Source of the DNA: an uncultured Alphaproteobacteria bacterium
GTDB lineage: Bacteria > Pseudomonadota > Alphaproteobacteria > RF32 > CAG-239
Reading direction: 5' to 3'
DNA length: 64,000 nt
NCBI GenBank assembly: GCA_934254585.1
Contig: CAKQLF010000006.1
Location: 2,839-66,838 of the forward strand
The translations under genes were made by a program, and so were the position numbers. The first letter of the stretch is position 1. Each line of letters starts with the position of its first letter. The notes below the pieces were generated by a model. That model worked only from the letters and a program-made list of their open reading frames with translations, made no database searches and was not told the DNA's origin. This document shows positions 1-64,000 of this stretch, one piece after another.

Positions 1-2016
1 ACTTTTGATGTCAAAGGCTTTCAACACCGCCGGATGAATTTCGCCAAAGTAAGCCAACACATTTTTGCCCAAACGCAAAGTTCCGGAACGCCCCGGATGA
101 TAATACGATGGTGCGTCAAGCGTAATCTGCGGATTTTCAAACGGTCCTTTAGCCGCGGCAATCACCGCCAACGCATCGGCCTTGGCGTCAAAAACATCAT
201 AATCGCGGTTGCTGTGCGTCCAATCTTTTTTAGATGTCTGACCACAACGCACGCCGCTGGCAGCCATAATCTGTTCTTGCGGATTGCGGCCATAGAATTC
301 CGGTCCAACTTCAAACAGGGAGACATTGGCATAACCGCGAGCAATATTATTTTTAACCGCCGTCAGCAAGTTTGGTAAAATTGACGGACGCATTTCATTC
401 AGTTCTTTGGCAATCGGGTTAGCCAGAATAATCGCTTCGCCGCCTTTACGGAAATATTTTGCCAAATCACTGTCGGCAAAACTCCAAGTCACGGTTTCAT
501 ACATACCGCGAGAAGCCAATTCGTGCTTTACGATTAAAGCATTGTGCTGTGCCAGCGACAAAATTTCTTTCGGAAACTTATTATGCGGTAAAGAAACGGC
601 CGGAATTTCATCAAGACCAATCATTCGCACAACTTCTTCGACTAAATCGTGCTCGCCCTCAATATCACCGCGCCAACTAGGTGAAACCGCCTTGATTTTA
701 CCGTTTTCCAAAGAAGTCTCAAAACCGAGTTTATTCAAAATTTCCATAGATTTTTCGGCACTTACCGGTAAACCGATTAAAGTTTCCAGACGCTCCGGAC
801 GCAAATAAGCCACTTGCGGTTCACATTCTTCCGAACCAACCACGGTCAATTCCGACGCCTCTCCGCCGCAAATACTCAAAATCATCGCCGTTGCATAATC
901 TGAGCCGCTGATGTTTGATTTTGGATCAACCCAACGTTCATAACGATAGCGCGAATCCGAATCTATTTGCAGATGACGACCGGTGCAGGCAATACATTCC
1001 GGCTTAAACAAAGCGCATTCCAACAAAACATTGTTTGTATTTTCTGAACAGCCCTTAGCCAAACCGCCCATAATACCACCCAAACATTGCACACCTTCCG
1101 CATCGCAAATGCCCAAGGCCTTATCATTCAAAACATATTCTTTTTCGTTCAGCGCGGTAAATTTTTCGCCGTTTTTCGCCATACGAACAACAATATCGCC
1201 GCTTAATTTATCCGCGTCAAAAACGTGCAACGGACGTGCCAAATCATAATTTATGTAGTTGGTAATATCAACAAGCGGAGAAATAGAATGTAGCCCGATT
1301 GCCTCCAAACGGTCTTTCATCCACTTCGGCGTTTCGGCTTTATTATTCACATTGCGGATATAACGCGCGGTGTAAGTCGGACATTCCGCCGGACATTCCA
1401 CCGTAATTTTCAGCGGATTAGCAAATTTGGCCGGAGTTTTTACAATATTCAATGGTTTTAATTTGCCCAATCCTGCCGCTGCCAAATCGCGAGCAATACC
1501 ACGCACGCCCAAACATTCGGCGCGGTTAGGAGTAATAGAAACTTCTATTACCGGATCAATTGCCAAAACTTCCGCCGCCGGTTTACCGAGTTGCGTGTCC
1601 GCCGGCAATTCAATAATGGCATTGTGGTCCGAGCCAATTCCCAATTCATCAAAAGCGCACATCATACCACAGCTTTCGACACCGCGGATTTTTGTTGGTT
1701 TCAAACGCTCGTTAAACAAAGGAATCAAGGTTCCTGATGGTGCGAAAATACCGATTAAACCGGTATAAACATTCGGCGCGCCGCAAACAACTTGATATTT
1801 ATGGGTTCCGTCGTTCACGCACAAAATGTGCAAATGGTCAGAATCAGGATGATTTTCCACGCTATCCAGACGCGCGGTGATAAAGCCGTTTAAATTAGCG
1901 GCCGGATTGCAAACTTCTTCAACTTCCAAACCGATACGGGTTAATGTTTCACTAATTTCATCGAGTGTGGCTGTTGTGTCTAAATGTTCTTTGAGCCATG
2001 ACAAAGTAAATTTCAT
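1..2016 (-). CDS. pheT: Phenylalanine--tRNA ligase beta subunit, partial; the 3' end lies beyond the window start
   Basis: The reverse complement of 2016..1981 reads ATG AAA TTT ACT TTG TCA TGG CTC AAA GAA CAT TTA (MKFTLSWLKEHL), a typical PheT N-terminus. The start overlaps the pheS stop as ATGA. The ORF track shows no stop in this minus frame down to position 1. The plus-strand ORFs 34..1768 are antisense shadows. Confidence 0.85.
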   Translation of the reverse strand, partial: MKFTLSWLKEHLDTTATLDEISETLTRIGLEVEEVCNPAANLNGFITARLDSVENHPDSDHLHILCVNDGTHKYQVVCGAPNVYTGLIGIFAPSGTLIPLFNERLKPTKIRGVESCGMMCAFDELGIGSDHNAIIELPADTQLGKPAAEVLAIDPVIEVSITPNRAECLGVRGIARDLAAAGLGKLKPLNIVKTPAKFANPLKITVECPAECPTYTARYIRNVNNKAETPKWMKDRLEAIGLHSISPLVDITNYINYDLARPLHVFDADKLSGDIVVRMAKNGEKFTALNEKEYVLNDKALGICDAEGVQCLGGIMGGLAKGCSENTNNVLLECALFKPECIACTGRHLQIDSDSRYRYERWVDPKSNISGSDYATAMILSICGGEASELTVVGSEECEPQVAYLRPERLETLIGLPVSAEKSMEILNKLGFETSLENGKIKAVSPSWRGDIEGEHDLVEEVVRMIGLDEIPAVSLPHNKFPKEILSLAQHNALIVKHELASRGMYETVTWSFADSDLAKYFRKGGEAIILANPIAKELNEMRPSILPNLLTAVKNNIARGYANVSLFEVGPEFYGRNPQEQIMAASGVRCGQTSKKDWTHSNRDYDVFDAKADALAVIAAAKGPFENPQITLDAPSYYHPGRSGTLRLGKNVLAYFGEIHPAVLKAFDIKS

Positions 2017-4026: not shown

Positions 4027-4731
4027 ATGATTAGATTATTTTTAGTTATCTTGATGGTTTTAGTATTTAACTTTAACGCTTCGGCTCAAATCAGGTTCTA
4101 TAGAATATCAGACACAAATATAACTCAAGAAAAATATTTGTTTGGTGATGATAAAATACGTCTGACCGCAAGTAGTGAAAGTTATGATAGCTACACAATT
4201 GTTGCCAAATATACGTTTTATGGAACTTTAATAGATGTAACCATAGAAGGTTATCGTTCCTACAAGCAAACTTACCTTGGTAAAAATACAAAACTACCGC
4301 TACAAGAATACGCAAAAGGACAGTTGTTGTATTCAGATGGCAAAGTTTGCGAAATTGTCAACAAACGCGAACGCTCACTTTTGAAAATAAAAGATGTTAA
4401 GTTATGTGCTGTTTATGAAGATTATTCTATTAGTCAGGGACTTAATTGGACTAACTCTCAGTTCGAGAATAATATAAACCCTAACTATTATCAACTATCT
4501 AAGTGGGAAACCGCATATAGCTACATCGAAAACAACAAAAAATATGAAAAGAATGTTGTCTTTGGAAGCTATGGCACAAAAGCAACTATTTCCGTTTTGG
4601 ACGTAACCTTTACCAATGGACACAAAGTCAGATTACATATTTACAATGACCCTGAATGGGCTAATGCCAAACCTAGAATGTTGGTTGAGCGTTTCAAAGT
4701 TCGTCAGATAACTGTCTATAAACTTAAATAG
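4027..4731 (+). CDS. Hypothetical secreted protein with an N-terminal signal peptide
   Basis: 234-aa ORF. N-terminus MIRLFLVILMVLVFNFNASAQ looks like a signal peptide. It has its own promoter and a downstream intrinsic terminator. No recognisable domain. Confidence 0.6.
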   Translation: MIRLFLVILMVLVFNFNASAQIRFYRISDTNITQEKYLFGDDKIRLTASSESYDSYTIVAKYTFYGTLIDVTIEGYRSYKQTYLGKNTKLPLQEYAKGQLLYSDGKVCEIVNKRERSLLKIKDVKLCAVYEDYSISQGLNWTNSQFENNINPNYYQLSKWETAYSYIENNKKYEKNVVFGSYGTKATISVLDVTFTNGHKVRLHIYNDPEWANAKPRMLVERFKVRQITVYKLK

Positions 4732-4742
4732 ACACCTAAAAA

Positions 4743-4772
4743 GCCTCACTGCACAGTGGGGCTTTTTGCTTT
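4743..4772 (+). terminator. Rho-independent terminator: GCCTCACTGCACAGTGGGGC hairpin plus T-run
   Basis: Stem-loop followed by TTTTTGCTTT directly after the 4731 stop. A nearly identical copy occurs at 6244..6274. Confidence 0.7.
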
Positions 4773-4787
4773 ACGACTTAAATAATC

Positions 4788-4886
4788 CACATTTTCCCTA
4801 CTAAAAAATGCTATATTTAGCACTTTTTCCTTACTAAAAAATGTAATTTTACACACTTTTTCTATTGAAAAAATGTAATTTTAGTA
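4788..4886 (+). repeat. Three imperfect tandem repeats of about 32 bp (CACnTTTTCCnTACTAAAAAATGnnAnTTTAn)
   Basis: Units begin near 4788, 4821 and 4852. They lie directly upstream of the AAA ATPase gene. Confidence 0.6.
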
Positions 4887-4926
4887 TATATTAGTTAAAA
4901 AAGCAGTTGATTTACGGAGAGCTCTT

Positions 4927-6231
4927 ATGGAACGATATTCATTGCAAACCTTAGAAAAATGGAAAAACAAAACCGGCAGAAAACCCTTGATAATTCAAGG
5001 TGCCAGACAAGTTGGTAAAACTTGGCTTTTAAAAGAATTCGGCCGCAGATATTATGAAAAAGTTGCCTATGTAAATTTTGATAATAATAAAAATATGGAG
5101 ATATTATTTTCTAAAGGTATGGAAATTTCTCAACTTCTGCAAGGGCTTGAACTGGAAACCGAAATAAAAATTACTCCGAACGACACTTTAATTATATTTG
5201 ATGAAATTCAGGAAAATCCCAATGCTTTAAATTCTCTGAAATATTTCTACGAAAATGCTCCCGAATATCACATTGTTGCCGCCGGCAGCCTGTTAGGTGT
5301 TGCCTTAACTCATCAAGGCAAATCATTTCCGGTCGGCAAAGTAGAATTTATGGATTTATACCCTATGAGCTTTTATGAATTTTTAGATGCTTTGGGTGAA
5401 GATAAACTATGCAGCGTTTTGAAACAACAAAATTTTGCTTTGATGGAAACCTTTAAGGCTAAATATGAAGATTTACTGAAAACTTATTTCTATGTCGGAG
5501 GTATGCCGGAAGCGGTTAAAAAATTTGCCGAACACCAAGATTTTCAAGAAGTACGCGAACTGCAAAACTTTCTGTTAAAATCTTATGAACAGGATTTTTC
5601 AAAACATATTGAAAAAAAAGACACCCCGAAAGTCCAAATGATATGGGACAGTATTCCCTCCCAGTTGGCAAAACCTAATCCTAAGTTTGTATACGGACTG
5701 CTAAAAGAAGGAACCAGAGCTAAAGAATTTGAAAATGCTTTGATTTGGCTCAAGAAAACCGGCTTAGTTTATCAAATAAACAAACTGAAAAAACCGGGGC
5801 TTCCGATATATGCTTATGAAGACCGAAGCTCTTTTAAACTTTATATGTTAGATATCGGACTTTTTTGCGCTAAAAGTTTGTTAGACGCCAAAACTCTTTT
5901 GTCCGGAAGCCGGATTTTTGAAGAATTCAAAGGTTCTTTAACCGAACAATATGTATTGCAAGAGCTGAAAACACTGTCTGATATGCCGATTACCTATTGG
6001 GAAGGCACTAACTCGGAAGTTGATTTTGTGGTGCAGCGCGGCAGCGAAATTATACCGGTTGAAGTGAAAGCTACAACTAATCTTAAAGCCAAAAGCCTAA
6101 AAGTTTACTGTGAAAAATATCAGCCGGCTCAAGCAGTACGAACATCTTTAGCTGACTTCAAAAAAACTGAAATCCTGACTGATATACCTTTATATGTTAT
6201 AGAAAATTTTGATAAAATTATAAATCAATAA
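4927..6231 (+). CDS. AAA-family ATPase, DUF4143-type ATP-binding protein
   Basis: 434 aa. Walker A motif GARQVGKTWLL near the N-terminus. The length and architecture are typical of the widespread AAA_14/DUF4143 ATPases. Confidence 0.75.
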   Translation: MERYSLQTLEKWKNKTGRKPLIIQGARQVGKTWLLKEFGRRYYEKVAYVNFDNNKNMEILFSKGMEISQLLQGLELETEIKITPNDTLIIFDEIQENPNALNSLKYFYENAPEYHIVAAGSLLGVALTHQGKSFPVGKVEFMDLYPMSFYEFLDALGEDKLCSVLKQQNFALMETFKAKYEDLLKTYFYVGGMPEAVKKFAEHQDFQEVRELQNFLLKSYEQDFSKHIEKKDTPKVQMIWDSIPSQLAKPNPKFVYGLLKEGTRAKEFENALIWLKKTGLVYQINKLKKPGLPIYAYEDRSSFKLYMLDIGLFCAKSLLDAKTLLSGSRIFEEFKGSLTEQYVLQELKTLSDMPITYWEGTNSEVDFVVQRGSEIIPVEVKATTNLKAKSLKVYCEKYQPAQAVRTSLADFKKTEILTDIPLYVIENFDKIINQ

Positions 6232-6243
6232 ATATTATTCAAA

Positions 6244-6274
6244 GCCTCACTGCATAGTGGGGCTTTTTGCTTTT
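6244..6274 (+). terminator. Rho-independent terminator, a near-identical copy of the 4743 element
   Basis: GCCTCACTGCATAGTGGGGC followed by TTTTTGCTTTT. Confidence 0.7.
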
Positions 6275-6283
6275 AATTTTTTG

Positions 6284-6454
6284 TTGATTTATTAAGAAGA
6301 GTTTGCTAAGGTTTGGGTATTGAATAATTCACCTGTTTTATGAGGAAAGAAAGATGAAAAATAAGCAATCAAAAGGTCTCTCTCTCTCTCTGCAAATCCT
6401 AACTGTCTGATTAAAGGCATATTTTCTGCCACTACAGACGTTTTTGCAAGTTTT
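6284..6454 (+). promoter_or_regulatory. Pilin-family 5' cassette, copy 1: a degenerate promoter (TTGATT-17-TAAGGT), GAGGAAAG RBS plus ATG, (CT)7, and a hairpin/T-run
   Basis: About 85% identical to the cassettes at 33321..33497 and 50365..50545. The -10 hexamer is TAAGGT rather than the TGcTATAAT seen in the other copies. Confidence 0.6.
6378..6391 (+). repeat. (CT)7 dinucleotide tract inside the cassette mini-ORF
   Basis: ctctctctctctct counted directly. The same position holds (CT)8 in copy 2 and (CT)7 in copy 3. Confidence 0.9.
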
Positions 6455-6796
6455 TTGAAGAATTTTAGTTGTAGAGAAACTACTCACTCACACTTCTTTA
6501 ATGTCATTAACGGGCTTGACCCGTTAATCTTGTCGCGACACACATTTTCTTCACTATTCTCAATCATTCGCGGGCACCTCTTTAGCGTCATTCGCTGGCA
6601 CAGACCAGCGAATCTAGATTGCCGGATCAGACTGTGCGTCACGTCCGGCAATGACAATAAGGTGGAGCATGTCGCGTTCGGCAATGACAGTAGATTGGGA
6701 CGATGGTTAAGAGCTGTTTGCAATTTAATAAATACCCCTCACTCGGCACTGTCGTGCCACTCTCTCCCGCACGGGGCGAGAGAGTATGGTCGTTCG

Positions 6797-7381
6797 ATGA
6801 TAGAAATGCTCGGAGTATTAGCTATAGTGGGTGTCCTTTCCGTCGGTGGTATCGCCGGCTATTCTAAGGCGATGGAAAAGTGGAGAATTAATAAGCTGAT
6901 GGAAGAATACAGTTATATGATACAAGGAATTTTAGGCCACTTAACTGAATTTCAAAAATTACCTCGCAATACCGGCCTCGTTGACGTTGGTTTAGCGATG
7001 AATTTTATCCCGTCAAATTGGAAAAAAATAAATCCATTACTCGCTTATGACACTTTCGGAAATGTGGTTAAACCTTATGCCAGAGATAAGCGCGTTGTCA
7101 TTGACTTTTATTTGGGAGGCTTTTCAGACGGACAAAAATCTAAAGGGTTTTCGCCCAGGATATGCGCCGCCATAATGAAAGATCTGGTCAAACCTTTACA
7201 TTCATCTTTAACCTACGCTTGGATATTTCGTGGTGGATTTGTTGTAACCGACCACTTTCGAGGCGACACACGTTGCACCTCCAATGTTACTTGTTTAAGA
7301 GACATCACTCCAGATGACATTAACCGAGTCTGCAACTTGTGTGACGGGGAAAGACAATGTTCCATTACAATTGAATTTTAA
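6797..7381 (+). CDS. Type IV pilin-like protein, copy 1. Start unresolved: 6797 is the only in-frame ATG and the frame is open from 6365
   Basis: GRSMIEMLGVLAIVGVLSVGGIAGYSKAM aligns with the prepilin N-terminal motif G-FTLIELMIVVAIIGILAA, with E at +5 and AIIG conserved. The Cys-rich C-terminus resembles a pilin D-region. It is a paralog of 33875, 50648 and 63150. The copy-2/4 GTG start position reads GAG here, so no equivalent start exists. Confidence 0.6.
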   Translation: MIEMLGVLAIVGVLSVGGIAGYSKAMEKWRINKLMEEYSYMIQGILGHLTEFQKLPRNTGLVDVGLAMNFIPSNWKKINPLLAYDTFGNVVKPYARDKRVVIDFYLGGFSDGQKSKGFSPRICAAIMKDLVKPLHSSLTYAWIFRGGFVVTDHFRGDTRCTSNVTCLRDITPDDINRVCNLCDGERQCSITIEF

Positions 7382-8200: not shown

Positions 8201-9316
8201 CTACATAGCCCGAGAATCATCTTTTCTATAAATCGCACGTTTTCGCAGATTATTGGATTTTTTTGTTTTCTCGGCACTTTTTATCACTTCCATATTATTG
8301 CTGACGATTTTATCATTCATTCTTCCCTTAACCTGCTCCAGTGTCTGAGGTTTTAAGGATTTTATATGGACAGTTTTTTTGGACTTGCTGATTTTATTGC
8401 TCAGCCAACCCATAGCGGATTCAATTTTGGCAACTATCGGCATTACCGCGCCTCCAACCACAGCTCCGCCTATTCCGCCGGCAACAAAACCAACAGGACC
8501 GGCGGTTAATCCGCCATAAGCCGCACCCAACACGCCCAAAACTGTGGCTCCGGCTTTCATACCCGCTTTTATATCTTCTTTAGAGTTTGCCACAACCCTT
8601 TCAAAATTGTTTTTATTTTCCTTTTCTTTTGTTTTCTCTTTTATTTTATCTAATAATTTTTTTTCATTCTTTTTCGGCTTGCGGATTTTATTGCTCAGCC
8701 AACCCATAGCGGATTCAATTTTGGCAACTATCGGCACTACCGTGCTTCCAACCATAGCTCCGCCTATTCCGCCGGCGACAAAACCAACCGGCCCCGCGGT
8801 TAATCCGCCATAAGCCGCGCCCAACACGCCCAAAACGGCGGCTCCGGCTTTCATACCCGCTTTTATGTCTTCTTTAGAGTTTGCCACAACCTTTTCCGCC
8901 GGAGCTTTAACAACCGGCACATCTTGTTTCTTTTGTGTTTGTTGACTGCGATTTTTATTCATAATAAGCCATTCTTTAAACTTTCTGGAAACAGGATTTA
9001 TTGCTCCATCGGCATCATACCCGAATTTTTCAATAAATTTATCTCCATTTTTAGCCACGTCCAACAATATATCTTTTGGCAGATTTTTACGATTTTCCGC
9101 ACTCATAACACTTTGCATATAAGTCAAAGCCTGACTTTTTAATTTTTCAATTGCTCTATCAGACTTAGCCAAGTGTTTCGTTTTACTTTGTAAATATTCC
9201 AAAAGTTCAAAATAATCAGTCATTGAACGTTCGTTATAGCCGGCTCGAAGGAGCTTGGCAAATTTATTTTTGTCATCTTCAGAATATTCTATTTTTCCAG
9301 GATTATTATCAGACAT
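8201..9316 (-). CDS. Hypothetical protein with a duplicated glycine-zipper membrane module
   Basis: 371 aa. A block of about 98 aa (VANSKEDIKAGMKAGA..LGVLGAAYGGLTAGPVGFVAGGIGGA..PIVAKIESAMGWLSNKI) occurs twice. GxxxG-rich hydrophobic segments are present. The N-terminal domain has no known homology. Confidence 0.6.
   Translation of the reverse strand: MSDNNPGKIEYSEDDKNKFAKLLRAGYNERSMTDYFELLEYLQSKTKHLAKSDRAIEKLKSQALTYMQSVMSAENRKNLPKDILLDVAKNGDKFIEKFGYDADGAINPVSRKFKEWLIMNKNRSQQTQKKQDVPVVKAPAEKVVANSKEDIKAGMKAGAAVLGVLGAAYGGLTAGPVGFVAGGIGGAMVGSTVVPIVAKIESAMGWLSNKIRKPKKNEKKLLDKIKEKTKEKENKNNFERVVANSKEDIKAGMKAGATVLGVLGAAYGGLTAGPVGFVAGGIGGAVVGGAVMPIVAKIESAMGWLSNKISKSKKTVHIKSLKPQTLEQVKGRMNDKIVSNNMEVIKSAEKTKKSNNLRKRAIYRKDDSRAM
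8390..8891 (-). repeat. In-frame tandem duplication: two units of about 208 bp with a 294-bp period (98 codons)
   Basis: Unit 1 at 8390..8597 and unit 2 at 8684..8891 are about 95% identical at the DNA level. Confidence 0.85.
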
Positions 9317-11941: not shown

Positions 11942-13603
11942 TTATTTCCGACGTAAGAACGATGGAATATCCAGTTCGTCACCCGACAATTCCGGTGTTT
12001 CATTTTCATCGGAAGTAAATTTTTCCATTTCATCAGAGTTGTTTTCTGTTTCGTCTTTATTTTTTTTACGCGCGCGAATACCCATAACACGTTCGATAAA
12101 TGTAGGTTTTACATCATCACTGCCATCATCTTCCAACGGTAAAGTTTCATTTTCCACCGGTTTAAAATCTTTAAACACATCGGTATCATACTCTTTAAAC
12201 AAAACAGGTTCTTCGGATTCATTTACACTTTGAATTGAAGTGCGGCTTGAAAAGGAATCCGCGTCTTTCGGCGCAATAGAATTAAATTCAATATCGCTGT
12301 TGTCTGCGTCATCAGCCTTGTTGGCCGAACTGTTCATAATTGCGCTAAACAATGCAGAAGCCTGCGGAACTTCAGGTAATTCGTCAGATTTATCTAATGA
12401 TGCAAAATCTTTATCTAAATTTTCATCAGCTTCCGTTGTTTCTTCACTGATTGTTTCAGTAATCAAATCCGGTTCCGATGCAGCTATTTCATCTTCATTA
12501 ACATCAAGCGAAACCGGTTCGTTTTCGACAGCATCATTCATTTCTATTGTCGGCACAAAAGCGGAATCATCATAACTTTGGTCAATTAGAGAAGGTTCTT
12601 TGGTTTTTGGCAAAACTTCCGGCTGAGGTTTGCCGTCGTTAATTCCCGTAACCACAATGGAAACACGAATTTTTCCGGCCAGACTTTCATCATAGCTTGA
12701 ACCGAAAATAATATTGGCATTATCATCAACTTCTTCTTTAATGATGTTTGCCGCCGCATCAATTTCCATAAGCGTAATATCATCGCCGCCGGTGATGTTG
12801 ATTAGCACCCCTTTGGCACCGTGCATAGTACAGTCATCTAACAACGGATTTGACAAAGCTTGCTTAGCGGCCTCTTCGGCTCTTTTTTCACCTTCGGCTT
12901 CGCCTGTTCCCATTATGGCTTTACCTTTATCCTGCATAATGTTTTTAACATCGGCAAAATCCAAGTTTATAAGCCCCGGCATCATCATTAAATCGGTGAT
13001 TGAACGTACACCCGAATAAAGCACATTATCAGCCAACAAAAAAGCATCGGCCAAAGTTGTGTTTTTATCGGCAATACGGAATAAGTTTTGGTTAGGGATA
13101 ACAATAATACTGTCAACTTCACTGGTGAAATTAGCCAACGCGCTTTCTGCCGTTTCCATACGTTTACGTCCCTCAAAAGAGAACGGCTTTGTAACCACGC
13201 CAACGGTTAAAATACCTTTTTCTTTGGCAATATGAGCCACAACGGGAGCCGCACCCGAACCGGTACCGCCACCCATTCCGGCCGTGATAAACACCATATT
13301 AACTCCCTCAAGCTCGCGAGCAATTTCTTCTTTAGCTTCTTCGGCGGCAATTTTACCGATTTCCGGACGTGCACCGGCTCCGAGTCCTTGCGTAATTTCC
13401 AGACCCAACTGAATTTTACGACTGGCAGAAGAGTGAGCCAAAGCCTGAGCATCGGTGTTAGCCACAACAAAATCGACGCCCTCTAAATTTTTGGCAATCA
13501 TATTATTAACGGCATTTCCGCCGCCACCGCCAACACCAATAACGGCAATACGTGGTTTTAAATGTGATACTGTGGTATCGGCAACACCCAATTTAATTGA
13601 CAT
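11942..13603 (-). CDS. ftsZ: Cell division protein FtsZ
   Basis: GGGTGSG tubulin signature and [16 protein letters not shown]. Long acidic C-terminal linker ending in DIPSFLRRK. The start was set to the ATG at 13603 with GGGAGA 9 nt upstream; the track TTG at 13618 lies inside that RBS. Confidence 0.95.
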
Positions 13604-13682
13604 CAATTTTTCTCCCAATTAGAAAATTTCACTTATATTAGGTATAAAATAACGGAAATAGATTAAGTTTTTCTTACTATTT

Positions 13683-33320: not shown

Positions 33321-33497
33321 TTGATTTATTAAAAAGTATTTGCTATAATCATGGTGTTTAATAATTAACTATTTTTATGAGGAAAGAAAGATGAAAAATA
33401 AGCTTAGCAAAGGTCTCTCTCTCTCTCTCTGCAAATCCTAAATGTCTGATTAAAGGCATATTTTCTGCCGCTACAGACGTTTTTGCAAGTTTTTTCA
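33321..33497 (+). promoter_or_regulatory. Pilin-family 5' cassette, copy 2
   Basis: TTGATT at 33321-33326, a 17-nt spacer, then the extended -10 TGcTATAAT at 33341-33349. GAGGAAAG RBS with ATG at 33391. (CT)8 at 33415-33430. GTCTG..GGCA..UGCC..CAGAC hairpin followed by GTTTTTGCAAGTTTTTT. Confidence 0.65.
33415..33430 (+). repeat. (CT)8 tract, one unit longer than in copies 1 and 3
   Basis: Counted directly as ctctctctctctctct. Confidence 0.9.
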
Positions 33498-33829
33498 GAA
33501 AAAATGATGTATGCGAGAATAACAAGCACAGCACGAAACTGGCAGGCGGCACAAAGCAAGCAATTCTAGCACCAGTCATTCTAAGCCCTGTGCCTAGAAT
33601 CTTGTTGCAACAAGGTACTAACCTAGTCAATAAATTTGCCTTATTATTACATAAGTGTCGGTTCGCACAAGATTCTCGGGACAAGCCCGAGAATGGCGGT
33701 AGCTGGAGGTGTTGGCTTATTATTTGTTGCTCGTTTTTTAATCACCACTCACCCGACACTACCATGTCGACCGATAAGCCATCAAAGGGATTGGGTGTCG
33801 TGCGTCAATACGCCGCACTTTTGGAACGA

Positions 33830-33849
33830 CGTGTACAGAGTAGTACACG
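33830..33849 (+). promoter_or_regulatory. Perfect 7-bp inverted repeat CGTGTAC-N6-GTACACG, about 25 nt upstream of the GTG start
   Basis: The same inverted repeat occurs twice upstream of copy 4 (63775..63795 and 63889..63908). Confidence 0.5.
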
Positions 33850-33874
33850 AGCGCAAAAATTCCTAGCAGATGGC

Positions 33875-34567
33875 GTGCAGTACGGGAGAAGTATGATTGA
33901 AATGTTAGGCGTTCTGGCCATCATCGGTGTTTTGAGCGTTGCCGGAATCGCCGGTTATTCCAAGGCGATGACTAAGTGGAAAATCAACAAATCCATTGAA
34001 CAAATAGAGCAAATTACCCACAACACATTCACAACTTTTGCCAACCAAAAGGACTTTAGGTCTATATATTCTTCTGACGAAGATGGTATAAACCTTTTTA
34101 AATCTTTAGGCATAATCTCCGAGGATATGATTGTTGATGGTCAGCTAAAAAATTCATTTGGCGGGGATTTAAAACTGTATGCTGGCACATTTAATAGTAG
34201 TTATCTAACTCATTCAGGCGAAAAATATTTTTCACTTGAATACTGGAATATACCACGCGAAGCCTGTATGGCTTTGGGTTCCCTAGATTGGGCTAAAGGT
34301 TCTGATACTGTAATAGGTGTAGGAATCTCACCTAATCGTGATAATGTAATGATAGATCCTACTGAGTGTTGGCTTCTTAATTATCTCACCCTGGATTATC
34401 GCGACGGAGGCTGGTTAGTGGTTTGCAATAATGGTGTTCCAGATGAAGAGTATGGAGAAACGGAAGCTGATAGGATACCTCTGCCAATTCCGCTTGATAT
34501 TGTGGCCGAACATTGTAAATGCAAAGATAACGATTGTTATTTTGGCGTGGCCTTCACCGATAAATAA
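33875..34567 (+). CDS. Type IV pilin-like protein, copy 2. GTG start giving leader MQYG; the frame is open back to 33395
   Basis: QYGRSMIEMLGVLAIIGVLSVAGIAGYSKAM prepilin-type N-terminal helix. C-terminal Cys pairs (CKCKDNDC). Its 5' region is nearly identical to that of copy 4. Confidence 0.65.
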   Translation: MQYGRSMIEMLGVLAIIGVLSVAGIAGYSKAMTKWKINKSIEQIEQITHNTFTTFANQKDFRSIYSSDEDGINLFKSLGIISEDMIVDGQLKNSFGGDLKLYAGTFNSSYLTHSGEKYFSLEYWNIPREACMALGSLDWAKGSDTVIGVGISPNRDNVMIDPTECWLLNYLTLDYRDGGWLVVCNNGVPDEEYGETEADRIPLPIPLDIVAEHCKCKDNDCYFGVAFTDK

Positions 34568-50364: not shown

Positions 50365-50545
50365 TTGATTTGTTAAGAAGTGCTTGCTATAATCAAGGTG
50401 TTTAATAGTTCACCTAATTTTATGAGGAAAGAAAGATGAAAAATAAGCAATCAAAAGGTCTCTCTCTCTCTCTGCAAATCCTAAATGTCTGATTAAAGGC
50501 ACATTTTCTGCTGCTACAGACGTTTTTACGAGTTTTTACAGAAAA
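50365..50545 (+). promoter_or_regulatory. Pilin-family 5' cassette, copy 3
   Basis: TTGATT at 50365-50370, a 17-nt spacer, then TGcTATAAT at 50385-50393. RBS with ATG at 50436. (CT)7 at 50460-50473. Hairpin followed by GTTTTTACGAGTTTTTAC. Confidence 0.65.
50460..50473 (+). repeat. (CT)7 tract
   Basis: Counted directly. Confidence 0.9.
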
Positions 50546-50647: not shown

Positions 50648-51253
50648 GTGCAGTGTGGACGAAGTATGATAGAAATGCTTGGCGTTCTGGCCATAATCGG
50701 CGTTCTGTCTGTCGGCGGTATTGCCGGTTATTCCAAGGCAATGATGAAATTCAAAACCAATCAAATTGCCGACCAAGTATCCACTATCGTAACTAATATC
50801 AAAACACTATACGCTCAGCAGAAAAACTACGAGGGGCTGAATAATGCTTCTGCTGTATCAATGGGAATTATACCGGACAAATTAGGCTCTGATTTAACCC
50901 ATCCATTTGGCGGAAATGTAGGCGTTTATTCAGATTATGGTATAAACACATTCTTTATTGAATATAAAGAGTTACCAAAAGAGGCTTGTATAAGTTTGGC
51001 AACTAATGACTGGGGCGCAAGTATTTCATCCGGTTTAGTTGCTATGGCTGTTAGCACTTATAGTACTTACATTCCTCCAATCTTAAACAAAATGTATTTA
51101 GGTTGCCAGGGGGAAGAACAATATTGGGGACGAGCTTATATAGCTTGCCCTGGTGGTTCGGTTCTGTCTGTTCCGATGAGTCCGGAAAAAGCCTCCGCCG
51201 CTTGTGCTTGTGATAAGGGAAATACTTGTTCGGTTGGTTGGATGTATCACTAA
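50648..51253 (+). CDS. Type IV pilin-like protein, copy 3. GTG start giving leader MQCG; an alternative TTG at 50618; the frame is open back to 50447
   Basis: CGRSMIEMLGVLAIIGVLSVGGIAGYSKAM. The alpha1 extension QVSTIVTNIKTLYAQQKNYEGL is shared with copy 4. C-terminal Cys cluster. Confidence 0.65.
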   Translation: MQCGRSMIEMLGVLAIIGVLSVGGIAGYSKAMMKFKTNQIADQVSTIVTNIKTLYAQQKNYEGLNNASAVSMGIIPDKLGSDLTHPFGGNVGVYSDYGINTFFIEYKELPKEACISLATNDWGASISSGLVAMAVSTYSTYIPPILNKMYLGCQGEEQYWGRAYIACPGGSVLSVPMSPEKASAACACDKGNTCSVGWMYH

Positions 51254-52685: not shown

Positions 52686-52762
52686 GCGCTCGTAGCTTAA
52701 TTGGATAGAGCATCTGACTACGGATCAGAAGGTTGTGAGTTCGAGTCCCGCCGAGCGCGCCA
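52686..52762 (+). tRNA. tRNA-Arg, anticodon ACG, with encoded CCA
   Basis: Manual fold: acceptor 1-7 with 67-73 (GCGCTCG/CGAGCGC); D-arm; anticodon stem TCTGA/TCAGA with loop CTACGGA; T-loop TTCGAGT. The T-stem GTGAG/CCCGC contains one A-C mismatch. Confidence 0.85.
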
Positions 52763-63116: not shown

Positions 63117-63151
63117 CGTAAAAGGCGGAAGTAAAATAACTTCCGCTTTTT
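63117..63151. terminator. Bidirectional terminator: GCGGAAG-taaaataa-CTTCCGC plus T5
   Basis: Lies between the convergent ugd and pilin copy 4. Confidence 0.6.
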
Positions 63152-63749
63152 ATCTGAAGAAAAGTCCCATACAAACGGTGCCATCTTGTTGAGCTCTATT
63201 GCAGTATTTGTTGGCCATATCAAAACTTATGATATTATTTCCGCCTTCAGCACAAACAAAATAAGCACCCTTTATTTCTATTTTTCCGGAACAACCTTGT
63301 CCGGTTTGCTTTATTCCTGCAGCTCCATTCAAAAAATTATGAGCGAGAACAATAGATATGCCGTACAAACCATTAGCATTGCCACCCCACTGTTGGGTGG
63401 TTAAAGCCAAGCATTGTCTTGCAGTCAGTCCGCAAATGCGTAAACCGAATAAGGCTCCATCTTCAGAAGCTCTTAATCGTACATCGGTATTTTTCCCCAA
63501 TGGCAAATTCCAATTGTTTTCCGGATACACACCGGCTTGTAATGCGGTTGAATCAGACAAACCTTCATACGATTTTTGCTGCATATAAAGCGTTTGCACA
63601 TTAGTGGCTATTTGTGTCAGATAATCAATAGTTTTATCTATTTTCCACTTTTCCATCGCTTTTGAATAGCCGGAGATTCCGCCGACGGAGAGAACAGCGA
63701 TTATGGCGAGAACGCCGAGCATTTCTATCATACTTCTCCCATACTGCAC
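63150..63749 (-). CDS. Type IV pilin-like protein, copy 4. GTG start at 63749 giving leader MQYG; the frame stays open upstream to beyond the window end
   Basis: QYGRSMIEMLGVLAIIAVLSVGGISGYSKAM. The alpha1 extension is shared with copy 3. C-terminal Cys residues are present. Its 5' cassette would lie beyond position 64000. Confidence 0.65.
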   Translation of the reverse strand: MQYGRSMIEMLGVLAIIAVLSVGGISGYSKAMEKWKIDKTIDYLTQIATNVQTLYMQQKSYEGLSDSTALQAGVYPENNWNLPLGKNTDVRLRASEDGALFGLRICGLTARQCLALTTQQWGGNANGLYGISIVLAHNFLNGAAGIKQTGQGCSGKIEIKGAYFVCAEGGNNIISFDMANKYCNRAQQDGTVCMGLFFR

Positions 63750-63774
63750 GCCATCTGCTAGGAATTTTCTCGCT

Positions 63775-63908
63775 CGTGTACTTTTTTTGTACACGTCGCT
63801 TAAAAATCCCGTCGCATCTGACGCACATTGCGGAAGAAGATTTCTAATATGTTTTGTCTGTTTGGTTACTGCTCGCGCTTTTCTCACTCGTGTACTACTC
63901 TGTACACG
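63775..63908 (-). promoter_or_regulatory. Two copies of the inverted repeat CGTGTAC-N6/7-GTACACG upstream of pilin copy 4
   Basis: 63775..63795 has an A7 spacer and 63889..63908 has spacer agagta. It is the same operator-like inverted repeat as at 33830..33849. Confidence 0.5.
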
Positions 63909-64000
63909 TCGTTCTAAAAGTGCGGCGTATTGACGCACGACATCCAATCCCTTGAATGTGATTGTATTTTTCTTTCTATAATCAATCACCCTCTCAACAT

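Follow-up and report, generated by a model that had tools for sequence, protein, structure and literature searches.

Type IVb pilin genes of an uncultured alphaproteobacterium probably form a family of (CT)n contingency loci with very long leaders

A 64,000-nucleotide (nt) stretch of DNA from an uncultured Alphaproteobacteria bacterium (GenBank assembly GCA_934254585.1, contig CAKQLF010000006.1, positions 2,839 to 66,838 of the forward strand), hereafter called the window, was shown by six-frame translation to contain four genes that encode the pilin motif GRSMIEMLGVLAI. Each of these genes is preceded, in the pilin frame, by a long extension that is free of stop codons. It is likely that the four genes belong to a family of (CT)n contingency loci that encode type IVb prepilins with very long leaders, which would be discarded.

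In the proposed mechanism each locus would be a type IVb prepilin gene that is self-contained and phase-variable. Translation from the ATG of MKNK(Q/L)SKG would be driven by a promoter of the sigma-70 type together with a strong ribosome-binding site (RBS), with the (CT)n tract directly after this sequence. When n is a multiple of three the ribosome would read LSLS..., an extension of 52 to 303 codons, the glycine at position -1 (Gly(-1)) and then the mature pilin, RSMIEMLGVLAI...; when n is 7 or 8, as in copies 1 to 3, it would meet a conserved stop codon 14 to 20 codons in and no pilin would be made (OFF). The slipped-strand gain or loss of a single CT unit, from 7 to 6 or from 8 to 9, would turn the locus ON. 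In that state the entire N-terminal part would remain cytoplasmic as an outsized leader, of about 74 to 165 amino acids (aa) in the window and up to about 316 aa elsewhere, and prepilin peptidase would remove it at the conserved site G↓RSMIE, where the arrow marks the predicted cut. Since such a leader would be discarded, readability would be the sole constraint on it, and palindromic modules that form hairpins could fill it up, in a way that resembles Rickettsia palindromic elements (RPEs).

The methionine of MIEM was located at position 6797 (+) in copy 1, 33893 (+) in copy 2, 50666 (+) in copy 3 and 63731 (-) in copy 4. The pilin-coding regions, including their stop codons, and the extensions upstream of them are as follows.

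6791 to 7381, plus strand: copy 1 mature pilin, 196 aa
6788 to 6790, plus strand: copy 1 Gly(-1) codon GGT, predicted prepilin-peptidase site G↓RSMIE
6392 to 6787, plus strand: copy 1 extension, 396 nt (132 codons), stop-free in the pilin frame
33884 to 34567, plus strand: copy 2 Gly(-1) codon and mature pilin, 226 aa
33431 to 33883, plus strand: copy 2 extension, 453 nt (151 codons), stop-free in the pilin frame
50657 to 51253, plus strand: copy 3 Gly(-1) codon and mature type IVb pilin, 197 aa
50474 to 50656, plus strand: copy 3 extension, 183 nt (61 codons), stop-free in the pilin frame
63150 to 63740, minus strand: copy 4 Gly(-1) codon (63738-63740) and mature pilin, 195 aa
63741 to 64000, minus strand: copy 4 extension, at least 86 codons, open and cut by the window end

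Between the tract and Gly(-1) there were no stops in the pilin frame of any copy, compared with 12 and 7 stops in the other two frames of copy 1, 12 and 5 in copy 2, 5 and 2 in copy 3, and 5 and 6 in the part of copy 4 that lies inside the window. The probability of a stop-free frame, as determined with dinucleotide-preserving shuffles, was 0.0032, 0.0002, 0.023 and 0.0026, respectively. A preliminary description of this DNA had reported open lengths of 144, about 157, about 67 and at least 86 codons. The long open frames were confirmed, with small differences in length: a re-count upstream of the methionine gave 144, 166, 73 and at least 89 codons.

Related loci were surveyed on a wider scale. 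A protein search returned about 8,000 relatives, named by their sources as proteins of Alphaproteobacteria or Pseudomonadota metagenome-assembled genomes (MAGs). The leader-plus-tract pattern was scanned in GTDB genomes and Joint Genome Institute (JGI) metagenomes, and at least 178 unique units were found, whose sources were a handful of human-gut Alphaproteobacteria MAGs, several of them from Hadza samples. Single genomes contained at least 58 (CAKQRZ), at least 25 (CAKQDU) and, in a third, at least 20 units. At least 21 units (L007, L021, L032 and L080 among them) came from CAVKTH01 and CAVIDY01, two GTDB genomes that bear the name 'Bacteroidaceae bacterium', and these bins are probably mislabelled or contaminated.

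A pilin motif was present within 1.5 kb in 132 of the 178 units. The extensions of these units had 67 distinct lengths, from 156 to 909 nt (52 to 303 codons), the length was a multiple of three in 130 units, and n mod 3 predicted the pilin frame in the same proportion of units (130/132). No stop was found in the 15,727 pilin-frame codons of the 130 triplet-length units. When all 132 units were counted (15,992 codons) there were seven pilin-frame stops, every one of them in L131 or L132, two decayed units whose extension is interrupted by frameshifts or stops, compared with 1,336 and 858 stops in the two remaining frames of the full set of 132. Copies of the same module differed by 12-17% in pairwise comparison, and at this divergence an unconstrained frame would be expected to have gained roughly 100 or more nonsense changes. 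None was seen, a result that argues for selection against stops. Chance or base composition was rejected as the cause of the open frame, on the basis of the shuffles in the window and the three-frame counts in the 132 units. The preliminary description had proposed that these regions are kept open and translated in some phase, to give an N-terminal extension of 60-150 aa that is atypical of pilins, and had named stops at related loci as an observation that would speak against this proposal. The per-frame stop statistics, the orthologous and paralogous loci without stops in the pilin frame, the 130 of 132 units in frame and the natural in-frame alleles described below all supported it.

These counts bear on the alternative that the extension is an untranslated 5' leader, or intergenic DNA with palindromes like repetitive extragenic palindromic (REP) sequences, that its open frame is a by-product of composition, and that translation starts at a GTG or ATG beside the motif. 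The sequence GTG CAG T(A/G)(C/T) does lie ahead of GRS in copies 2, 3 and 4, gene callers often place the start at MIEM or at internal codons (P0002, P0003), and the extension is rich in hairpins with little codon periodicity. This alternative is nevertheless extremely unlikely, given the absence of stops from the pilin frame in 130 units against the 1,336 and 858 in the other two frames of the 132, and the 130 extension lengths that are all triplets. Furthermore, there is no start codon near the pilin motif in copy 1, and a search of the 130 units revealed no conserved internal start or Shine-Dalgarno (SD) sequence: the methionine at mature position +3 had no SD ahead of it in 112 of the 130 units, and an in-frame start preceded by an SD was present within the last 30 extension codons in only 51 of the 130. 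An internal start beside the motif was rejected on these grounds. The codons for G-R-S vary synonymously among units (GGTCGGTCA, GGCCGCAGT, GGGCGGTCA and others) while Gly(-1) is conserved, which indicates that translation begins upstream of the Gly codon. Finally, the frame is open all the way back to the CT tract, which would be needless if initiation were internal.

In copies 1 to 3 the open frame was traced back into a conserved 5' unit that consists of a sigma-70-like promoter, an RBS, an ATG and the (CT)n tract. The 5' unit of copy 4 lies outside the window, past its end.

6284 to 6312, plus strand: copy 1 promoter-like site TTGATT-17-TAAGGT, which failed a consensus scan
6342 to 6353, plus strand: copy 1 RBS, GAGGAAAGAAAG, almost invariant among related units
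6354 to 6377, plus strand: copy 1 ATG and first eight codons, MKNKQSKG, resembling an ordinary short, Gly-ended prepilin leader
6378 to 6391, plus strand: copy 1 (CT)7 tract, the proposed frame switch, OFF
6408 to 6410, plus strand: TGA stop codon of the copy 1 out-of-frame product, MKNKQSKGLSLSLQILTV
33321 to 33430, plus strand: copy 2 5' unit, ATG at 33391 (MKNKLSKG), OFF
33321 to 33349, plus strand: copy 2 promoter TTGATT-17-TATAAT with the TG of an extended -10
33379 to 33390, plus strand: copy 2 RBS
33415 to 33430, plus strand: copy 2 (CT)8 tract
50365 to 50473, plus strand: copy 3 5' unit, ATG at 50436 (MKNKQSKG), OFF
50365 to 50393, plus strand: copy 3 promoter TTGATT-17-TATAAT with TG
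50424 to 50435, plus strand: copy 3 RBS
50460 to 50473, plus strand: copy 3 (CT)7 tract

This anatomy was shared by the related units. A site of the form TTGnnn-16..18-TAnnnT was present in 149 of 162 units, mostly 65-67 nt upstream of the ATG, and the RBS GAGGAAAGAAAG was found exactly, among the top variants listed, in 159 of the 162 units with full upstream sequence. The leader start reads ATG AAA AAT AAG ... AAA GGT in the window copies, encoding MKNK(Q/L)SKG, and the variants across the units were MKNKLFKG, MKNKLSKG and MKNKQSKG. The -10 element of copy 1 (TAAGGT, 6284-6312) is weaker than the TATAAT with upstream TG of copies 2 and 3 (33321-33349 and 50365-50393), and judged by this element copy 1 may be transcribed more weakly than copies 2 and 3. 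Upstream of copy 1, a hairpin that resembles the intrinsic terminator of the preceding gene was observed at 6241-6266.

The distance from the ATG to the pilin methionine was 443 nt in copy 1 (n = 7), 502 nt in copy 2 (n = 8) and 230 nt in copy 3 (n = 7), that is 2, 1 and 2 mod 3, and all three copies are therefore out of frame at present. As sequenced, the ATG frame ends after 18, 16 and 18 codons, respectively; either n = 6 or n = 9 would bring all three copies into frame.

Tract length varied among the 178 units (n = 3 in one unit, 5 in one, 6 in seven, 7 in 117, 8 in 51 and 9 in one), and the tract is in frame with the pilin only at n = 3, 6 or 9. Both ON and OFF alleles occur naturally. 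The ON alleles were L001, which encodes P0001 (n = 3), and L110, L112, L133, L149 and L151 (n = 6), and in these six units with downstream sequence the upstream ATG was read into a full prepilin of 267-343 aa. Two more n = 6 units ended at a contig edge, and the only n = 9 unit, L060, ended after 113 aa in non-pilin sequence. In the OFF units the ATG frame stopped after 14-20 codons in 168 of 169 cases, the remaining one being cut by the contig end, and stops were present in both wrong frames directly after the tract. Consistent with a contingency locus, a tract in the 5' coding region thus sets the frame, with early stops in the wrong frames. The best match in the protein search was P0001, the copy 3 ortholog from another sample, which has the same flanking genes and the same extension but a (CT)3 tract, and which is annotated as a single 271-aa protein that runs from MKNKLSKG through the extension into the pilin. 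When units from different samples were assigned to the same locus (at least 97% identity over up to 600 nt downstream), n differed in six of nine clusters, always as 7 versus 8. By analogy with the CT-repeat genes of Helicobacter pylori (PMC12915409), frequent reversible switching within a population would be expected.

The predominance of out-of-frame copies, about 95% of the total, could also be taken to mean that they are decaying pseudogenes of a once-active pilin family in which no switching occurs, and a few copies (L131, L132, L060 and L029) are clearly decayed. In L060 (355-700 (+)) and L029 (5351-5560 (-)) the modules run into non-pilin sequence and then a stop. There is very little likelihood, however, that decay explains the family as a whole: stops and non-triplet indels would be expected in dead genes, and none was found in 130 of the 132 units despite the 12-17% divergence of the modules, the promoter and RBS are conserved, and the pilin N-terminus is under strong purifying selection. 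The last of these conclusions was drawn from the codon-position entropies of the pilin N-terminus, which were 0.29, 0.26 and 1.25, with the excess at the third position.

The family and fold of the pilin were established for the copy 3 type. Copy 3 scored 47.8 bits against Pfam Bundlin (PF05307) and 43.6 bits against PilS (PF08805), both of which exceed the cut-offs (about 22), and matched bundlin (1zwt) with E = 1e-6. An AlphaFold model (AF2) of the copy 3 ortholog had as its top structural matches TcpA, the type IVb pilus of enterotoxigenic Escherichia coli (ETEC) and CofA, and also matched Salmonella PilS, with E values from 4e-6 to 3e-4 for TcpA, CofA and PilS. Copy 4 also scored above the Bundlin cut-off (25.0 versus 22.3 bits). 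Copies 1 and 2 are tied to the type IVb family solely via 46% identity across the first 94 aa, the value obtained when copy 1 was compared with copy 3. No useful family was returned by NCBIfam for any of the four copies, a PDB sequence search with copy 1 returned nothing relevant, and the product of copy 2 had no exact match on record. All four copies have GRSMIEM with Gly at -1, as in class III signal peptides, and Glu5 lies inside a hydrophobic stretch of about 21 residues (R1-S2-M3-I4-E5-MLGVLAIVGVLSVGGIAGY). In an alignment of 60 relatives Gly(-1) was at least 90% conserved, and E5 was invariant, as were M, I, L, G, V, L, A and I.

Prepilin leaders are 6-26 aa long (15-30 aa in type IVb pilins), remain cytoplasmic and are cleaved behind Gly at the membrane's cytoplasmic face (PMC4471445), and a long N-terminal extension therefore need not cross the membrane. 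Among the 120 best relatives, 99 have leaders of 7-11 residues with the same G↓RSMIE end (for example MRVNESG, MTMIKTNESG and MNNYKHNEQSG). This result locates the predicted cleavage site and shows that the long extension is the derived state. Other relatives have one of the two additions without the other. P0092 (L181 600-700 (+), also L182) has a (CT)11 tract in a 29-residue leader, MKISKQKN-SLSLSLS-RNPQSQPIESTQSG↓RSMIEM, which is in frame and contains no modules, and which looks intermediate in sequence between the ordinary short and the giant leaders. P0015 (L170 354-660 (+)) and P0006 (L171 1166-1385 (+)), from other gut MAGs, have modular leaders of 100 and 73 residues that are in frame from the ATG with no CT tract, and so represent a long leader without a switch. 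Tract and modules are thus separable additions to an ordinary leader of short length.

The extensions were found to be mosaics of about ten recurring peptide modules, each of which derives from palindromic DNA (for example VILGLVPRI..DSWDKPKND, LLRVARND, SPSPARGEG, LHRPWCHKILGTDCASRPRMTGGRG and VVRQYAALLERRVQ.GTRARK). The peptide repeats that had been reported in copy 1 (NVINGL, SIIRGH and SVIRWH; GNDNK and GNDSR) are present, and correspond to the arms of perfect inverted repeats; inverted repeats with perfect arms of 8-9 nt were located at 6506-6528, 6590-6613, 6618-6652 and 6759-6785. The predicted RNA fold of the copy 1 extension had an energy of -128.4 kcal/mol (z = -4.5), lower than all 100 shuffles. 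Module A formed two local hairpins in which 97.8% of cells were paired and three pairs had compensatory changes, a result reached by none of 500 shuffles. A long-range pairing proposed for this module by RNAalifold was rejected, as it showed little covariation and the local two-hairpin structure fitted better. Two other parts of the preliminary description were inexact. The extensions are not notably AT-rich, their GC content being 40-46% compared with 39% for the window, and they are not entirely unrelated between subfamilies: copies 1 to 3 share the first ~66 nt after the tract (6392-6457 in copy 1), and copies 2 and 4 share the VVRQYAALLERRVQSSTR module. This common module, VVRQYAALLERRVQSSTR...KFLADGVQYG, lies at 33780-33883 (+) in copy 2 and 63741-63980 (-) in copy 4, where an in-frame indel between two GTGTAC..GTACAC hairpin copies gives copy 4 an extra 114 nt (38 codons).

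In contrast to the pilin N-terminus, codon periodicity was weak or absent in the extension. The three codon positions had entropies of 0.39, 0.42 and 0.41 in the 66 nt after the tract and 0.25, 0.20 and 0.37 in module A, which has a slight third-position excess; readability is therefore kept, with little sign of selection on individual residues. The extension is predicted to be disordered, since the AlphaFold confidence measure (predicted local distance difference test, pLDDT) of P0001 was below 50 over most of residues 1-93 and above 80 over most of the pilin domain; the alignment of the extension is shallow.

A BLAST search of all the extensions against the window detected the modules only upstream of the four pilins, and generic genome-wide REPs were rejected on this basis. 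In 792 kb of MAG loci the module matches were almost all in pilin leaders, with one other secreted family and a few short matches. [quoted passage not shown] An intron, an intein and a known RNA element were also rejected as explanations: at gathering thresholds Rfam returned one tRNA gene (52686-52759 (+)) and no other match in the whole window, and the intervening sequences vary in length and content. The second family with these modules comprises small Cys-rich secreted proteins (MLKS.EFLR.KSRGRV ... AMSILAFLCLFATAAEAKICFLP...), in which ~150 residues of the same modules follow the ATG (RBS taggagga) in frame and precede a Sec-type signal peptide; a CT tract is absent.

L111, ~4580-5400, plus strand: Cys-rich secreted family locus
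L009, ~6974-7075, minus strand: Cys-rich secreted family locus
L075, ~4367-4574, minus strand: Cys-rich secreted family locus

With regard to the role of the modules, they would seem to be tolerated passengers rather than functional parts. A further-reaching interpretation is that the hairpin leader is a working part of the switch, a translation-coupled gate of a new kind on top of a contingency locus. In the OFF state, the pilin codons would be preceded by 160-900 nt of structured RNA free of ribosomes, which would prevent leaky internal initiation and would invite Rho-dependent termination or RNA decay, so that OFF would be tight, and in the ON state the translating ribosome would melt the hairpins. 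Under this interpretation each small genome would have 25 to more than 58 complete type IVb pilin genes, every one with a promoter of its own and a (CT)n switch one slip from ON, as the largest phase-variable pilin repertoire known, and its prepilin peptidase would process leaders ten times the known length. We regard this combination of claims as doubtful.

Several observations weigh against the proposal that these genes are switching loci with discarded leaders. The first group concerns the tract. Copy 1 had n = 7 in eight of eight samples (seven others had an identical pilin), and copy 3 had n = 7 in four of five (the window and three others, with n = 3 in the ortholog L001). Both tracts look stable, and fast switching is therefore not supported for the window's own strain. 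Nearly all of the assembled copies were OFF (117/178 with n = 7 and 51/178 with n = 8), and this distribution could be an ordinary unimodal spread around 7 rather than the result of selection against ON; it is only suggestive of selection that holds n at 7 or 8, between the ON states 6 and 9.

The same data could be accommodated if the extension were translated and the frame restored by RNA polymerase slippage of one CU unit or by ribosomal frameshifting, so that loci with n = 7 or 8 would constantly be expressed at a low level. In agreement with this idea, a change of exactly one unit would bring either n = 7 or n = 8 to an in-frame length, n = 7 was stable in eight samples for copy 1 and four for copy 3, and the ORF is intact though about 95% of the assembled copies are OFF. 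We consider it unlikely, since length variants exist at the DNA level, with in-frame alleles among them, and opposite shifts would be needed for n = 7 and n = 8. Known transcriptional slippage takes place at homopolymer runs, which also counts against it. In addition, the conserved stops in both wrong frames right after the tract fit a classic ON/OFF contingency locus.

The second group of contrary observations concerns the leader and the pilin. When read in frame at n = 6, the leaders of copies 1, 2 and 3 would be 145, 164 and 74 aa long, and thus are not the short hydrophilic leaders (6-26 aa, or 15-30 aa in type IVb pilins) of known prepilins; the cleavage of leaders of 74-316 aa by prepilin peptidase is a prediction from the conserved site. 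Copies 1 and 2 were below the Pfam cut-offs for Bundlin and PilS, and all four copies scored 12.1-14.2 bits against N_methyl (PF07963), below its gathering score of 21.2. No pilus assembly genes or prepilin peptidase were recognised among the ORFs of the window, of which the N-terminal sequences only were inspected, with no Pfam search of them.

Leaders of 64-316 aa, far beyond any known to be processed (PMC4471445), and the low N_methyl scores would also agree with a protein that is never cleaved, in which the extension is retained as a cytoplasmic N-terminal domain, the pilin helix acts as a signal anchor and the function is not that of a pilus. This explanation is very unlikely. The extension shows little amino-acid constraint, its mosaic content varies between paralogs and it is predicted to be disordered. 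Furthermore, Gly(-1), Glu5 and the hydrophobic helix show just the conservation seen in the relatives with leaders of 7-11 aa, and the fold is that of a type IVb pilin. On balance, a phase-variable prepilin whose long leader would be cut off at G↓RSMIE accounts best for these features.

The genes that neighbour the pilin loci looked like ordinary housekeeping genes, as judged from the N-terminal sequences of their ORFs (pheS, rplT, ftsZ, ftsA, ATP synthase, clpB and pyrG). Two other ORFs of the window were recorded.

8201 to 9316, minus strand: 371-aa ORF with an internal tandem duplication of a Gly-rich, membrane-like segment (VVANSKEDIKAGMKAGA.VLGVLGAAYGGLTAGPVGFVAGGIGGA...PIVAKIESAMGWLSNKI)
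11942 to 13618, minus strand: FtsZ homolog, 558 aa, with a ~200-residue acidic low-complexity stretch ahead of its C-terminal end

No description of this system was found in a full-text literature search. Translational phase variation by CT repeats is already known as a mechanism, as are type IVb pilins as a class of protein; what is new is the combination of the two, the size of the repertoire and the hairpin-module leaders, which exceed the length of any described by several fold. At 64 to about 316 residues, such leaders would stretch what is accepted as a class III signal peptide (6-30 residues), and would imply that a large N-terminal extension in the cytoplasm is tolerated both by prepilin peptidase and during membrane insertion. 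The data point to a very large and independently switchable pilin repertoire in common uncultured human-gut Alphaproteobacteria, of the kind expected under antibody or phage pressure. There is also a practical consequence for annotation: gene callers place the start at arbitrary internal codons or at the methionine that is mature residue +3, and so hide both the switch and the true start. As palindromic elements that accumulate in a stretch of protein that would be thrown away, under selection solely to stay readable, the modules would provide a clean example of selfish DNA.

A close mechanistic parallel is found in the CT-repeat genes of H. pylori, whose reading frame depends on the length of the tract, slipped-strand mispairing being what switches a surface protein on or off (PMC12915409). 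Both systems have CT as the repeat unit and carry it right behind the start codon, within the region for the signal or leader, and in the proposed mechanism the same on/off logic would apply here. The systems differ in that the H. pylori genes encode beta-barrel adhesins and number a handful, whereas the genes gated here are type IVb prepilins with at least 25-58 members per genome, and in the translated spacer of 52-303 codons that here separates the tract from the functional protein.

Contingency loci are also a feature of Neisseria, in which opa has CTCTT repeats in its leader-coding region and pilC a poly-G tract, and in which pilE/pilS antigenic variation occurs, the major pilin varying by recombination with silent cassettes. 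Like those of Neisseria, the present loci form a multigene family for a surface structure in which each member would be switched independently by a repeat in the 5' coding region, the majority of copies are OFF at once, and the structure that varies would be a type IV pilus. Unlike the situation in Neisseria, every complete pilin gene here has its own promoter, start codon and switch, and the repeat has a dinucleotide unit, where opa has a pentamer and pilC a homopolymer.

The pilins share Gly(-1), Glu5 and a hydrophobic N-terminal helix with type IVb pilins such as BfpA (bundlin), TcpA, CofA and Salmonella PilS. They differ in having Arg at residue +1, an N_methyl motif below the cut-off, and predicted leaders that are about 74-165 aa long in the window, and from 64 to about 316 aa among the relatives, compared with 6-26 or 15-30 aa (PMC4471445).

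The extensions themselves can be compared with the RPEs, palindromic modules that lie in frame inside ORFs and are read as extra peptide (PMC10969869). As in RPEs, repeated hairpin-forming modules here lie within ORFs without breaking the frame, their pairing is kept by compensatory changes, and the same modules also occur in frame in a second family of secreted proteins. In contrast to RPEs, which are scattered in unrelated housekeeping genes, the modules described here are chained, several per gene, and are concentrated at one permissive site, an N-terminal leader that would be discarded.

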